Part shown: positions 1,765 to 29,739 of the stretch, piece by piece
How positions within the stretch are numbered: the first letter of the stretch is position 1
Layout: each line of letters opens with the position of its first letter
Source: a phage
DNA length: 33,627 bases
Assembly: GCA_012551655.1 (NCBI GenBank)
Contig: GCA_012551655.1_3034.1
Direction: 5' to 3' (one strand)
Made by a program: the position numbers and the translations under genes
Notes under the pieces: model-generated
What the model saw: only the letters and a program-made list of their open reading frames with translations
Told to the model about the DNA's origin: nothing
Databases searched by the model: none

Positions 1765-4700
1765 ATGGCCGAGATTAAAAGAAAGTTCAGAGCAGAAGAT
1801 GGTCTGGACGCAGGTGGCGATAAAATAATCAACGTAGCTTTAGCTGATCGTGCCGTAGGAACTGACGGTGTTAACGTTGATTACTTAATTCAAGAAAACA
1901 CAGTTCAACAATACGATCCAACTCGTGGATATTTAAAAGATTTTGTAATCATTTATGATAACCGCTTTTGGGCTGCTATAAATGATATTCCAAAACCAGC
2001 AGGAGCTTTTAATAGCGTACGCTGGAGAGCGTTACGTACTGATGCAAACTGGACAACTGTTTCATCAGGACCTTATCAATTAAAATCGGGCGAATCAATT
2101 TCAGTTGATACTGCAGCTGGTAATGACATTACATTTACTTTACCATCTTCTCCAATTGATGGTGATACCATCGTTCTCCAAGATATTGGAGGAAAACCTG
2201 GAGTTAATCAAGTTTTAATTACAGCTCCGGTACAAAGCATTGTAAATTTTAGAGGTCAGCAAGTACGTTCAGTACTAATGACTCATCCAAAATCACAGAT
2301 AGTTTTAATTTTTAGTAATCGTCTGTGGCAAATGTATGTTGCTGATTATAGTAGAGAAGCTGTAGTTGTAACTCCTGCGAGTCTCTATCAGGCACAATCA
2401 AACGATTTTATCGTACGTAGATTTACTTCTGCTTCAGCAATTAATATTAAACTTCCAAGATTTGCCAATCATGGCGATATTATTAATTTCGTTGATTTGG
2501 ATAAATTAAATCCTCTTTATCACACAATTGTTACTACATATGATGAAACAACTTCAGTACAAGAAGTTGGAACTCATTCCATTGAAGGTCGTACATCGAT
2601 TGACGGTTTCTTGATGTTTGATGATAATGAGAAATTGTGGAGATTGTTTGACGGGGATAGTAAAGCACGTTTACGCATTATAACAACTAATTCTAATATT
2701 CGTCCAAACGAAGAAGTCATGGTATTTGGCGCGAATAATGGAACAACCCAAACAATTGAACTTCAGCTTCCGACTGATATTTCTGTTGGTGATACTGTCA
2801 AAATTTCCATGAATTACATGAGAAAAGGACAAACAGTTAAAATCAAAGCTGCCGGTGAAGATAAAATTGCTTCTTCAGTTCAATTGCTGCAATTTCCAAA
2901 ACGTTCAGAATACCCACCTGAAACTAAATGGGTGACTGTTCAAGAATTAGTTTTTAATGGTGAAACCAATTATGTTCCAGTTTTACAGCTTGCTTATATC
3001 GAAGATTCCGATGGAAAATATTGGGTTGTACAGCAAAACGTTCCAACTGTAGAAAGAGTAGATTCTTTAAATGATTCTACTAGAGCAAGATTAGGCGTAA
3101 TTGCTTTAGCTACACAAGCTCAAGCTAACGTCGATTTAGAAAATTCTCCACAAAAAGAATTAGCAATTACTCCAGAAACATTAGCTAACCGTACTGCTAC
3201 AGAAACTCGTAGAGGTATCGCAAGAATAGCAACTACTGCTCAAGTTAACCAGGATACTACATTCTCTTTTGCTGATGATATTATCATCACTCCTAAAAAG
3301 CTGAATGAAAGAACTGCTACTGAAACTCGCAGAGGTGTTGCTGAAATTGCTACGCAGCAAGAAACTAATGCAGGAACCGATGACACTACAATCATCACTC
3401 CTAAAAAGCTTCAAGCTCGTCAAGGTTCTGAATCATTATCTGGTATTGTAACTTTTGTATCTACTGCAGGTGCTACTCCAGCTTCTAGCCGTGAATTAAA
3501 TGGTACAAATGTTTATAATAAAAACACTAATAACTTAGTTGTTTCACCTAAAGCCTTGGATCAGTATAAAGCTACTCCAACACAGCAAGGTGCAGTAATT
3601 TTAGCAGTTGAAAGTGAAGTAATTGCTGGACAGAGTCAAGAAGGATGGGCAAATGCAGTTGTAACTCCAGAAACGTTACATAAAAAGACATCAACTGATG
3701 GAAGAATTGGTTTAATTGAAATTGCTACGCAAAGTGAAGTTAATACAGGAACTGATTATACTCGTGCAGTCACTCCTAAAACTTTAAATGACCGTAGAGC
3801 AACTGAAAGTTTAAGTGGTATAGCTGAAATTGCTACACAAGTTGAATTCGACGCAGGCGTCGACGATACTCGTATCTCTACACCATTAAAAATTAAAACC
3901 AGATTTAATAGTACTGATCGTACTTCTGTTGTTGCTCTATCTGGATTAGTTGAATCAGGAACTCTCTGGGACCATTATACCCTTAATATTCTTGAAGCAA
4001 ATGAGACACAACGTGGTACACTTCGTGTAGCTACACAGGTCGAAGCTGCTGCAGGAACATTAGATAATGTTTTAATAACTCCTAAAAAGCTTTTAGGTAC
4101 TAAATCTACTGAAGCGCAAGAAGGTGTTATTAAAGTTGCAACTCAGTCTGAAACTGTGACTGGAACGTCAACAAATACTGCTGTATCTCCAAAAAATTTA
4201 AAATGGATTGTGCAGAGTGAACCTACTTGGGCAGCAACTACTCTGATAAGAGGTTTTGTTAAAACTTCATCTGGTTCAATTACGTTCGTTGGTAATGATA
4301 CAGTAGGTTCAACACAGCCATTAGAATCATATGAGAAAAATGGTTATGCAGTATCACCATATGAATTAAACCGTGTATTAGCAAATTATTTGCCGTTAAA
4401 AGCAAAAGCTGCTGATACAAATTTATTGGATGGTCTAGATTCATCTCAGTTCATTCGTAGGGATATTGCGCAGACAGTTAATGGTTCACTAACCTTAACC
4501 CAACAAACGAATCTGAGTGCCCCTCTTGTATCATCTAGTACTGCTACGTTCGGTGGATCAGTTTCAGCAAATAGTACATTAACTATTTCTAATACTGGAA
4601 CAGCAACTCGATTGATTTTTGAGAAAGGACCTCAAACTGGAACAAACCCAGCCCAAACGATGACTGTTAGAGTGTGGGGTAATCAATTTAGTGGGGAATC

Positions 4701-15077: not shown

Positions 15078-15293
15078 TTAGATTGATAGGTCTTTAATCT
15101 TAGCTATTAAAACAGCTTTTCCTTCACGAAGTTTTTCCAGTTTACGACCATTAGAGCCGCGAACTACTAAGGAATTTATCTCCACTTCCAACCAATTTAG
15201 TTTTTCAACTAGTTCTTTACGTTTAGCATTCATGCCGGGTTTAACTTTACCGAAACGGGTGGTAGCGTTTTGAGTATTTTTCATCTTATTCAT
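15078..15293 (-). CDS. Hypothetical basic 71-aa protein
   Basis: ATG at 15293 with GGAGA SD, downstream of an early promoter; K/R-rich. Confidence 0.55.
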   Translation of the reverse strand: MNKMKNTQNATTRFGKVKPGMNAKRKELVEKLNWLEVEINSLVVRGSNGRKLEKLREGKAVLIAKIKDLSI

Positions 15294-15335
15294 TTTAATC
15301 TCCAGTTATTTTTCTGTATCAGTAGTTGATAGTTG

Positions 15336-15365
15336 TATAGTACCATGGAATGCTTTGGTTGTAAA
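15336..15365 (-). promoter_or_regulatory. T4-type early promoter
   Basis: GTTTAC (15365-15360), 18-bp spacer, TACTAT (15341-15336), conserved leader tatcaactactga. Confidence 0.5.
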
Positions 15366-15374
15366 CCGTTTTGT

Positions 15375-15417
15375 GAAAAAAAAAATTTAAATAAAAAAGG
15401 GAGAGCCGAGGCTCTCC
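15375..15417 (-). terminator. Rho-independent terminator (minus strand) downstream of 52 and the 49-aa ORF
   Basis: Minus-strand GGGAGAGCC-(uc)-GGCUCUCCC stem followed by UUUUUUAUUUAAAUUUUUUUUUU. Confidence 0.7.
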
Positions 15418-26383: not shown

Positions 26384-26809
26384 TTATTCCTTAAAGTGTG
26401 CTTTCAACATCTGATACAAGGACCATGCCTGTTCATTATTTTCAATAGTAACTTTCATGACCGGGAATTCTGTGAAATCTTCTATTTGTTCTTGCTCTTT
26501 CTCTTCCTGCTCTTGCTCTTCAGCTGCCTGGTATGGATTTTCAACTTCATCAAAGAACCCAGCTTCGCTAGTAGAAAGCCAGATAAAGTTTTCGTCAAGG
26601 ATATCACCATGTGTTGCATATCCAACTGTGCCAGTAGATGTCACAATTTTAGTAGGACGACCAAGATGGTCAACATCTAAAATTTTAAAAGGATGCATAC
26701 CTAAACGGCGCGCATAGATTCCGTTATCAGTATGATCTTTAATAAAATTTTCTTGAGCTTGTTTATTTTTAAATTGATACCATTTATTAACTTCAAATTT
26801 AATAGCCAT
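26384..26809 (-). CDS. Hypothetical 141-aa protein (size and position of T4 goF)
   Basis: 141 aa, acidic [12 protein letters not shown] tract; assignment by size and synteny only. Confidence 0.55.
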
Positions 26810-27024
26810 TAATAAGTTTCCTTCCAGTAAGTTGTGCCATCTTCAGTAATTTCACGAAATACACCGTAAATTGGTTGTTTATCACCAACCTTTTCATACA
26901 CATAAACCGAAGTCAAGTGAGTAAACTTAACGGTATGTTCTTTTTGAACTACTACCAAATCTGGATCGAATAGTACATCTTCAAATTCGTCATTAGTGCA
27001 ATTCTGAACAATTTTACGTTTCAT
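26809..27024 (-). CDS. Hypothetical 71-aa protein (size and position of T4 cef)
   Basis: 71 aa; stop overlaps downstream ATG by 1 nt; assignment by size and synteny only. Confidence 0.5.
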
Positions 27025-27037
27025 TACAATTTCCTCA

Positions 27038-27307
27038 TTAATTGAACAGTGGAGCGATGCGTTTCAGAAGAGTAGCAGCACCTTTAGCGAATTTTACATC
27101 ATGAAAAACAGTTTCTTCTTCCGTTACAACACGAGCTTTAATGTTTTCACAATCCCAATTTTTGCGAACAATCTTCAAAAGCTGCAGTAAATCTTTACAT
27201 TCAGCAATATCGATAACACATCCACGAGAATCTTCCATTATCGCACGATAACCGTAAGCCATACCATAATCATTGAAAGATTGCTCGATGATAATTAAAT
27301 TTTCCAT
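27038..27307 (-). CDS. Hypothetical 89-aa protein
   Basis: Track ORF starts at TTG; ATG at 27307 with GGAGA SD after promoter leader. Confidence 0.55.
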   Translation of the reverse strand: MENLIIIEQSFNDYGMAYGYRAIMEDSRGCVIDIAECKDLLQLLKIVRKNWDCENIKARVVTEEETVFHDVKFAKGAATLLKRIAPLFN

Positions 27308-27331
27308 TTTATTCTCCAAGTTGTTTTCTGT

Positions 27332-27374
27332 ATCAGTAGTTGATATTGATATAGTACCATAATCAACTACTGAT
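27332..27374 (-). promoter_or_regulatory. Early-promoter-like element: -10 TACTAT flanked by a perfect 13-bp inverted repeat (no GTTTAC -35)
   Basis: atcagtagttgat (27332-27344) and atcaactactgat (27362-27374) flank the -10 at 27351-27356; conserved leader present. Confidence 0.4.
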
Positions 27375-27404
27375 GTATATAGTTTTATGAAAAAATTTTA
27401 AACT

Positions 27405-27896
27405 TTATGCATAGCGAGCTTTGCTATAGTGTTTAATCCAACTTTCAGGAATGACTTTGTATGTTCCTAAAAATACCGCGTTGTATAACTTAACGCCATC
27501 TTCTACCCATTGATCAGTAATGTATGCACACATAGCGCGAGTACGGTTAACAACACCTTCCTCACCTTCAGTAAATTCAAACTCATAAGGAGCAACGAAC
27601 TTAATAGCCTGACCGAGTTTCCACTTAAAGTCTACACCTACATGCGAAGTATCAATCGTTTCAATTCCTTTAGCGGGAACAGCTTTCAAAAACGCAGGCT
27701 CAAGAAATTTCCATCGAACATAACCAAACTGAGGTTTAGACATTCCATCTTTAGGAATGATACGCACTTTTACTTCAGAATCTTCATCTTTAACACCATG
27801 TTTAAGCTGAATGCTTACGACTTCAACCAATTTTCCTGCTGCTTTAGAACGGGATTTATCAGATACACGAGCAATTTCACCGATATTAATATTCAT
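27405..27896 (-). CDS. MotB-like protein (163 aa; assignment by size and position)
   Basis: 163 aa vs 162 for T4 MotB, preceded by an early promoter; C-terminal ~40 aa paralogous to the next ORF. Confidence 0.55.
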   Translation of the reverse strand: MNINIGEIARVSDKSRSKAAGKLVEVVSIQLKHGVKDEDSEVKVRIIPKDGMSKPQFGYVRWKFLEPAFLKAVPAKGIETIDTSHVGVDFKWKLGQAIKFVAPYEFEFTEGEEGVVNRTRAMCAYITDQWVEDGVKLYNAVFLGTYKVIPESWIKHYSKARYA

Positions 27897-27940
27897 AATT
27901 ATCTCTCACTTGTTAAAAAGATTTTATACTCCGCAGGACC

Positions 27941-27970
27941 ATTATACTCTGGTCCCAAGAGTTTGTAAAC
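27941..27970 (-). promoter_or_regulatory. T4-type early promoter for the MotB-like gene
   Basis: GTTTAC (27970-27965), 18 bp, TATAAT (27946-27941). Confidence 0.55.
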
Positions 27971-28470
27971 TAGCTTACACGAACATTAATCACTGCGCTG
28001 CGAGGAACTACAGAGTACTCTCCAGCATGAACTACGTTCAGAAGTTCAACACCATCTTCAATCCACTGATCAGTTACCCAACCGCCAATCGGATTCGCGA
28101 ATGGACGACGAATATAAACTGCCTTACACAACAAATCAGTCGGGTCTTCAATTTTTTCAACTGGTGTTACATACATAGAAACTAAATCCATATCAATATG
28201 GGATTTTTCTTGTTCTTCTTTTTCAATTTCTGTCAATAAATTGAAATCTTCTTCATAGATGATGAATGATGATACCCTTCCATAATAGTTTCTAATTTCC
28301 ATGTACACTGTACCAATGAGAATTCCGCTATTAACACTAATAACAGTAAAAGGATATCCGCCAGTTGTACCAAGAAGTTCCCAAAACTTGCTATCAGTCG
28401 TATTCGACATTGTCTGGAAATCAATTTCAGATGGTTTTTTCATTTGATACGTAGTATTAATTTTAATCAT
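27970..28470 (-). CDS. Hypothetical 166-aa protein, C-terminal domain paralogous to the MotB-like ORF
   Basis: ATG with AAAGGAAA SD; C-terminus GWVTDQWIEDGVELLNVVHAGEYSVVP vs YITDQWVEDGVKLYNAVFLGTYKVIP in the neighbour. Confidence 0.55.
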   Translation of the reverse strand: MIKINTTYQMKKPSEIDFQTMSNTTDSKFWELLGTTGGYPFTVISVNSGILIGTVYMEIRNYYGRVSSFIIYEEDFNLLTEIEKEEQEKSHIDMDLVSMYVTPVEKIEDPTDLLCKAVYIRRPFANPIGGWVTDQWIEDGVELLNVVHAGEYSVVPRSAVINVRVS

Positions 28471-28479
28471 AATTTTCCT

Positions 28480-28992
28480 TTAATCTAAGGTAATAAAGCC
28501 TTTTAATTCGGCATGCGATTTGCGAAACATTACTTGATGCCCACCAATGATAACTTGATCATCTGGCACTTCATAAATCGCAATGTACATTCCACGATCT
28601 TTTAAGTCTTCACGCTCTTCTCGAGTAAACCATCTCATTATATCATATTCACTAGCGAAAGCAAAATGATATAATGCAATAAACCACAATGGAATATAAT
28701 TTTCAATTCGTGAATAATCTTTATTCCATTTAGTTTTAATAGCATCATTAGCATTTTCAACTAATAACTTATCATCGTGCGGAATAGGAATACTTTCATG
28801 ACTTTCATAATTATCGCTATGATGATGAAATGACGATGAATTAATACCGCAAAATTTTAGCCAAGTTCGAGTTTTCATAGAATCAAATCCACGATAAGGA
28901 GTTGATTGAACACATAACTCTTGCCTAATTTTCATTATACCACTATCATCATTTAATGCGCTAAACGATGATTCAACACGATAAATTTTCAT
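28480..28992 (-). CDS. Hypothetical 170-aa protein
   Basis: Track ORF 28480..29031 trimmed to ATG at 28992 after SD GAGGA and promoter leader: MKIYRVESSFSALNDDSG... Confidence 0.55.
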   Translation of the reverse strand: MKIYRVESSFSALNDDSGIMKIRQELCVQSTPYRGFDSMKTRTWLKFCGINSSSFHHHSDNYESHESIPIPHDDKLLVENANDAIKTKWNKDYSRIENYIPLWFIALYHFAFASEYDIMRWFTREEREDLKDRGMYIAIYEVPDDQVIIGGHQVMFRKSHAELKGFITLD

Positions 28993-29019
28993 TTTATTAT
29001 CCTCAGTAGCTATGGTGTT

Positions 29020-29049
29020 ATAATACCACAACTGACCGAGGAAGTAAAC
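29020..29049 (-). promoter_or_regulatory. T4-type early promoter
   Basis: GTTTAC (29049-29044), 18 bp, TATTAT (29025-29020). Confidence 0.55.
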
Positions 29050-29055
29050 AACTTT

Positions 29056-29739
29056 TTATCGTTTAGTTGGAAGAGATAGAGGATCGCATTCTTCCTCTGA
29101 TGGAGCGTCTTCTAGACCCATAGCGTATCGCAAAGCATACTTCATCATCAGGATGTCTTTCGCACAGTCATGAATAGAATCATGTGCAACGAATCCATCT
29201 AAAGTTCCCTTTGGAAGAGGACATGTGGTCATATCACGAACAAGCAGAAGTGCTTCAATTCTGGTACGAATATCACGCTGATTCCAGAATTTACACGGTT
29301 CTAACTTAAATGTGTCAAGCTCATTCTCAGAAACACCATTAAGACGTTGAATATCACGAATGAGATCGACTAAAATTGGAAAATCAAACGACATTCCACG
29401 GCACCAGCCTTGAGATTTCCAAGGATCGATATTATGCGCATTGATGTAATCATTAAATTTTGCAATACCATCGATAGTGCTTACATCTTCATCGGATGGT
29501 GCAATATTTTTTCGAGCTTCAGGAGATTGATTCTTCCACCATTCGATAGTGCTTTTAGTAAAAAGACGATGTCCTTTTTGGCTTTTTAAATCAAATTTGA
29601 TTTTAATGCCACGTGAAACTAATTCATCAAACGTTTCAACTACTTCTGGGTTAGGGTCAAAAGCAATTACAGCCAAATCAATAACAGCTGCTTTTTCACC
29701 GCTTCCCATTGTTTCAAAATCTATAATAAAATCAAACAT
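29056..29739 (-). CDS. dexA: Exonuclease A DexA (227 aa), DEDDh 3'-5' exonuclease
   Basis: 227 aa as T4 DexA; DFETMG (Exo I) and H-x4-D in FVAHDSIHDCAKD (Exo III) motifs. Confidence 0.85.
   Translation of the reverse strand: MFDFIIDFETMGSGEKAAVIDLAVIAFDPNPEVVETFDELVSRGIKIKFDLKSQKGHRLFTKSTIEWWKNQSPEARKNIAPSDEDVSTIDGIAKFNDYINAHNIDPWKSQGWCRGMSFDFPILVDLIRDIQRLNGVSENELDTFKLEPCKFWNQRDIRTRIEALLLVRDMTTCPLPKGTLDGFVAHDSIHDCAKDILMMKYALRYAMGLEDAPSEEECDPLSLPTKR

Follow-up and report, generated by a model that had tools for sequence, protein, structure and literature searches.

A homologous C-terminal beta domain behind different N-terminal barrels in the adjacent MotB and MotB.1 proteins of a T4-like phage

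On its sequence, the window (the whole stretch of 33,627 nucleotides of phage DNA that was analyzed) belongs to a Tequatrovirus, i.e., a T4-like phage. Positions 27000 to 29100 are 99.7% identical to Escherichia phage AR1 (Tequatrovirus), and 587 phage records were matched. The whole gene set at the locus lies on the minus strand and consists of goF, cef, a small open reading frame (ORF), motB, motB.1, motB.2, and dexA; the order motB.2, motB.1, motB is the same in AR1, wV7, and T4. A first-pass annotation of this DNA had drawn attention to two adjacent genes, for a MotB-like protein and its neighbor, whose products end in related sequences. Both ORFs (27405-27896 and 27970-28470, minus strand) had been placed correctly, and both peptides quoted at the time were found in the respective proteins. 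The genes and promoters of the locus are listed below.

26384-26809, minus strand: goF (phrog_622, E = 8.6e-42), with the N-terminal domain family to which the MotB.1 head is most closely related (PMC12152347)
26809-27024, minus strand: cef
27038-27319, minus strand: small ORF of PHROG 3720, between cef and motB
27405-27896, minus strand: motB, 163 aa (Pfam PF17613 over the full length, E = 1e-96; annotated as motB in AR1)
27969-27941, minus strand: early-type sigma-70 promoter of motB, TTTACA-17-TATAAT, 11/12 (promoter scan)
27970-28470, minus strand: motB.1, 166 aa (PHROG 2333, E = 1.8e-83; annotated as motB.1 in AR1 and wV7)
28480-28992, minus strand: motB.2, 170 aa counted from the AR1 and T4 start codon (ATG)
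29048-29020, minus strand: early-type promoter upstream of motB.2, TTTACT-17-TATTAT, TG-extended (promoter scan and reading of the sequence)
29056-29739, minus strand: dexA

The small ORF at 27038-27319 (minus strand) encodes 89 aa if read from the same ATG as in AR1 and 93 aa if read from a TTG. It is present in AR1, wV7, and T2 and absent from T4, and the function of PHROG 3720 is unknown. The stretch between this ORF and motB (27305-27395) is repeated with 77% identity about 12 kb away, at 15291-15381, upstream of another small minus-strand ORF. The repeat looks like a shared early promoter and 5' leader (GGTACTATA...ATCAACTACTGATACAGAAAA...GGAG), and its motB-proximal copy contains an inverted repeat (hairpin 27332-27374). 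It probably explains the second matching place per phage record in the DNA search.

Early promoters were recognized by a GTTTAC(A/T) -35 element, a 17-nt spacer, and TATAAT directly upstream of a gene. The first-pass annotation had assigned an early promoter to each of the two genes, which is right for motB alone. The -35 region of the motB promoter lies immediately next to the stop codon of motB.1. In wV7 this promoter is also annotated, and the site is conserved in T4. For motB.1, no minus-strand promoter was found between 28471 and 29019 at the 9-of-12 threshold of the scan. The motB.2 stop codon and the motB.1 start are 9 nt apart, and the intervening sequence includes a Shine-Dalgarno element. 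Because this gap is so short, motB.2 and motB.1 are probably cotranscribed from the motB.2 promoter. The sole candidate for an internal motB.1 promoter is an element within motB.2 (28637-28665, minus strand; about 167 nt upstream of the motB.1 start), which combines an extended -10-like TGaTATAAT with a poor -35 (TTTGCT, 3/6) and falls below the scan threshold.

Both proteins could be divided into domains, which map to the DNA as follows.

27426-27620, minus strand: shared module in MotB, residues 93-157 (hhalign, E = 4.4e-14; AlphaFold2 strands)
27693-27896, minus strand: N-terminal domain of MotB, residues 1-68, KOW-like, not common to MotB.1
27979-28134, minus strand: shared module in MotB.1, residues 113-164 (hhalign; family alignment; AlphaFold2)
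28059-28060: site equivalent to that of a +1 G in the T4 reference (NC_000866; motB.1 at locus positions 3292-3651)
28161-28226, minus strand: in-frame 66-nt segment without a T4 counterpart, encoding a 22-residue linker insert, ...HIDMDLVSMYVTPVEK... (DNA alignment with T4)
28222-28470, minus strand: N-terminal domain of MotB.1, residues 1-83, an acidic GoF/LSm-like small barrel

The C termini of MotB and MotB.1 are related, as had been proposed from the letters alone, and the shared segment aligned significantly in both domain-level alignments and HMM searches. With composition adjustment, BLASTP aligned MotB residues 124-152 to MotB.1 residues 130-158 at 55% identity (E = 9e-10). The Smith-Waterman score of the two proteins was 98, compared with a mean of 29.5 (sd, 5.0; maximum, 56) over 2000 shuffles (z = 13.8). 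Pfam PF17613, with a gathering cutoff of 25 bits, scored MotB at 321.5 bits over its full length and MotB.1 at 33.4 bits over residues 121-160, the latter matching model positions 114-153 only; the isolated C-terminal domain of MotB.1 gave 35.5 bits. Both proteins thus score above the cutoff. The PHROG of MotB (1671) also matched MotB.1, with an E value of 1.6e-15.

Family alignments were built from 73 relatives of MotB.1 and 72 relatives of MotB. Aligned to each other by hhalign, they paired MotB residues 93-157 with MotB.1 residues 113-164 (probability, 98.2; E = 4.4e-14). The module is therefore larger than the ~40 aa given at first, spanning ~52 aa in MotB.1 and ~65 aa in MotB, and the MotB copy carries a 13-residue hairpin insertion relative to that of MotB.1. 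When the domains were excised and compared by hhalign, the two C-terminal domains matched at an E value of 1.1e-17, and all other pairs of MotB and MotB.1 domains remained below 10% probability. In particular, the MotB head resembled neither the MotB.1 head nor either C-terminal domain at the profile level, in agreement with the first-pass description of the N-terminal parts as different. The same probabilities led us to reject the shared domain as a diverged copy of either N-terminal barrel.

Within the 73-sequence MotB.1 alignment, nearly all invariant columns fall in residues 109-160, and the conserved block starts at DPTDLL (residue 109). All invariant columns of the family motif DPTDLLC...GWVTDQWIEDGVELLNVVH...PRS, encoded between motB.2 and motB, are present in the window, and its sequence places the window gene in the MotB.1 family (PHROG 2333; categories 2 to 4 of PMC7827196). 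No third copy of the module was found in the window by tblastn. Searches of PDB sequences with MotB and with a profile of the shared domain returned nothing meaningful.

AlphaFold2, run on the family alignments, predicted both proteins to consist of two domains, with five C-terminal beta strands whose order is identical. For MotB (mean pLDDT, 81.6), an N-terminal domain (residues 1-67) is followed by a low-confidence linker (residues 70-83; pLDDT <50) and strands at residues 97-110, 115-132, 135-142, 145-150, and 154-157. For MotB.1 (mean pLDDT, 80.4), the N-terminal domain (residues 1-82; pLDDT about 87) and the linker (residues 86-106; pLDDT <50) precede strands at residues 117-122, 125-138, 141-148, 151-156, and 160-162 (pLDDT about 90). 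The structure prediction called for in the first-pass annotation thus gave matching strand orders, with high confidence in both C-terminal domains.

Against this background, we regard it as practically negligible that the resemblance reflects chance, composition, or a DNA or RNA element rather than a protein domain. The region is AT-rich and the match originally quoted was short, which might have favored such an account. However, the BLASTP and Smith-Waterman results hold after composition adjustment and shuffling, respectively, and profile-profile E values reach 1e-17, with the other domain pairs serving as nonsignificant controls. Conservation lies at the amino acid rather than the nucleotide level, and AlphaFold2 models both stretches as beta domains with high confidence.

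The two heads have distinct characters. The MotB head is basic (net charge, +4; pI 9.6), and its SxxSRSKxAG loop is invariant in the alignment of 72 relatives. MotB.1 matched the GoF family (phrog_622) weakly, with E values of 2.2e-4 for the whole protein and 5.3e-3 for the N-terminal domain alone. This match accords with the published assignment by Kim et al. (2025; PMC12152347), in which the MotB.1 head is LSm-like and grouped with GoF and Frd.2. The head of the window protein falls within this LSm-like GoF/Frd.2/MotB.1 N-terminal domain family, and its residues 1 to ~82 correspond to the published barrel. Other family members contain a D-x-D-x-x-S/A-x-Y...P motif like that of the linker insert (...HIDMDLVSMYVTPVEK...), located before LSm-like units or between a KOW-like head and the C-terminal domain. 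Given the predicted disorder of the linker (pLDDT <50), this sequence may be a short linear motif.

The shared domain is already known, from a 2021 publication on T4 and from its coverage by Pfam. Patterson-West et al. (Viruses 13:84; PMC7827196) described T4 MotB and MotB.1 as having a conserved common C-terminal domain and different N-terminal regions, distinguished several N-terminal categories (2 to 4), and proposed that one of the two genes arose by duplication of the other. The relationship in the window is the same. That study labels the shared domain an OB-fold, a label that is unconfirmed for the window proteins. PF17613 models the whole of MotB, so it matches the window MotB over its full length and MotB.1 over the C-terminal third only; for this reason, MotB.1 proteins receive a partial match and are often mislabeled "transcriptional regulator." Precomputed PF17613 matches exist for nearly all of the MotB.1 relatives listed, the exceptions being the truncated T4 allele (P0023) and a fragment (P0030). 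Related database families alongside PF17613 are PHROGs 1671, 2333, and 7007. Tandem small-barrel readers and adaptors, such as the KOW repeats of Spt5/NusG, the tandem Tudor domains of 53BP1, and EF-P domain I, offer a resemblance only (4 to 24% sequence identity, in matches not assigned to a domain), and no relationship to the shared domain was found at the sequence level.

The arrangement was compared in T4, T2, and T6, as the first-pass annotation had suggested; the gene order is kept in T4, motB.1 is lost in T2, and T6 has another head class. T2 (AP018813) encodes a MotB identical to that of the window. At its locus (2166-2348), motB.1 is deleted and motB.2 is reduced to its first codons, which precede the motB promoter. 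In T6 (AP018814; locus 2023-2562), the motB.1 position is occupied by a different head class (MKFNYNPEY...), split into ORFs of 55 and 101 aa.

In the T4 reference (NC_000866/AF158101), motB.1 encodes only 119 aa (13.8 kDa) and ends inside the shared domain, whereas the window MotB.1 has 166 aa, with an intact domain and the 22-residue linker insert. The T4 sequence carries a +1 G (ATT-GAA to ATTGGAA) within the shared domain, and the ORF ends four codons on; the DNA past the frameshift can still be read as the remainder of the domain. The extra G is absent from 13 other T4-type records (T4T, KJ477684-6, MT984581, OL964735/45, OZ209023/57, OZ035787, MZ375356, RB55, and RB59), and the annotated MotB.1 of T4T and MT984581 has 143 aa and a complete domain. 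Absence from 13 records would be compatible with a sequencing error, an explanation that was rejected because the same G and the same 119-aa ORF occur in an independent read assembly (Logan SRR33189851). The +1 G of the T4 reference is thus a rare real allele. Among the contigs, 3 have the G allele and 256 have the 143-aa form. Neither PMC7827196 nor PMC12152347 mentions a frameshift or truncation of motB.1. For the experiments in PMC12152347, the gene was synthesized from NC_000866.4, i.e., as the 119-aa allele, which lacks most of the shared C-terminal domain that is complete in the window protein.

The module could be the product of a recent partial duplication, or of ongoing gene conversion, between motB and motB.1. 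Such an origin would fit two neighboring genes of the same orientation whose most similar stretch is compact. At the DNA level, however, blastn found no match between them. In a codon alignment of the ungapped 37-codon core, 52% of the nucleotides are identical (35% of those at third positions), with the longest identical stretch measuring 8 nt, and both lineages are separately conserved in many T-even phages. We consider a recent event very improbable. With such low identity overall and at third codon positions, the duplication is ancient, and it bears no sign of gene conversion. The initial suggestion of domain shuffling or partial duplication therefore stands insofar as a homologous module lies behind different heads; it does not stand for a recent partial duplication.

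When 1.84 billion representative proteins were searched with a shared-domain profile, only 34 clusters were retrieved, of which about 28 are real. Matches to long proteins (600 to 860 aa; 4 to 7 stretches matched in each) were rejected as chance motif matches; the only one inspected, P0243, has Ig-like GYQWQKNGVSLTN repeats. The distant relatives inspected mostly have a KOW-like N terminus followed by the shared domain, and in two of them (P0242 and P0251) Pfam KOW (PF00467) scores above its cutoff. Several distant relatives combine a MotB.1-type domain start (DPTDLLC) with the long hairpin of the MotB type. Because nearly all distant relatives pair a KOW-type head with the domain, this architecture is most probably ancestral and the MotB.1 head a replacement. 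Shuffling can accordingly be narrowed down to an exchange of the N-terminal motB.1 head. In its makeup, MotB.1 resembles a chimera of the goF and motB families, both of which are encoded beside motB.1.

The MotB.1 relatives range from 143 to 252 aa and carry one to three different N-terminal barrel units in front of a near-invariant C-terminal domain. Together with the different head class in T6, this variety argues for repeated head swapping at the motB.1 locus. Three proteins of the Klebsiella-phage type (P0054, P0088, and P0230; 126-147 aa) join a MotB-like KOW head (SxxSRSRLAGK) to a MotB.1-type C-terminal domain (DPTDLLC...GWVTDQWIEDG), an architecture intermediate between those of the window motB and motB.1. 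Another protein, P0244 (43 aa), begins with 13 residues of the MotB.2 N terminus (MKIYRVESSFSIL) and continues with the end of the C-terminal domain of MotB.1. It reads as a deletion fusion of motB.2 and motB.1 and recalls the 29-aa RB69 peptide mentioned in PMC7827196.

Taken together, MotB and MotB.1 are two-domain early proteins. Each has a small beta barrel at its N terminus, then a disordered linker, and at its C terminus a five-stranded beta domain that is homologous in the two proteins and corresponds to the C-terminal part of PF17613. In the most probable history, an ancient tandem duplication of a gene with a KOW-type head and the shared domain gave rise to motB and motB.1. The head of the motB.1 copy was later replaced by a GoF/LSm-like barrel, from a family also encoded by the nearby goF. 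Heads in the MotB.1 lineage have since been swapped and multiplied repeatedly, with the C-terminal domain staying almost invariant. The shared domain may serve as a common partner-binding or self-association module rather than as a non-specific DNA-binding surface, and the variable heads may supply the contact with nucleic acid: DNA for the basic KOW-like head of MotB and possibly RNA for the LSm-like head of MotB.1. For this explanation as a whole, i.e., the ancient duplication, the replaced head, and the proposed roles of domain and heads, we estimate a probability of roughly 85%.

The functional part of this proposal is drawn from charge and conservation. MotB is a tight, non-specific DNA binder that copurifies with H-NS (PMC7827196). 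The shared module has a net charge of -2 to 0 in the window proteins and of -6 to +2 across both families, and conservation within it is highest in an acidic TDQW(V/I)EDG turn. The MotB.1 head and linker together have a net charge of -8, and the whole protein is strongly acidic. Since the domain is net neutral to acidic, its best-conserved turn is acidic, and MotB.1 is very acidic, partner binding or self-association is the more likely role, as opposed to a non-specific DNA-binding surface. The OB-fold label of 2021 would lead to a different reading, in which the shared domain itself binds nucleic acid and the heads of MotB and MotB.1, two DNA- or RNA-binding paralogues, do no more than modulate specificity. 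We regard that reading as unlikely on balance, if worth keeping in mind, and favor the shared domain as a partner-binding or self-association module.

A bolder extension of the partner-binding proposal is that the functional core of MotB.1 is its C-terminal domain and not the LSm-like head. The domain would then be an acidic partner-binding or heterodimerizing barrel that ties KOW-type and LSm-type heads to a common target, possibly the MotB/H-NS-DNA complex, and it would have been missed because of the frameshift in the T4 reference. We put this forward as a speculative idea that is probably wrong in its full form. If it is true, the negative results published for MotB.1 apply to a truncated protein.

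The shared domain alone adds nothing new to the field; it is a documented case of how the dispensable early region of T-even phages evolves by modules. What is of some practical use is the truncated T4 reference allele, along with how plastic the locus is. In most T4-like phages, most sequenced T4 stocks among them, the C-terminal domain of MotB.1 is complete and of the MotB type. The T4 reference allele, on which the published structure predictions and functional assays were based, ends within the domain. For work on the function of MotB.1, or on the interplay of MotB and MotB.1 in H-NS counter-silencing, the 143-aa or 166-aa form is the one to use.
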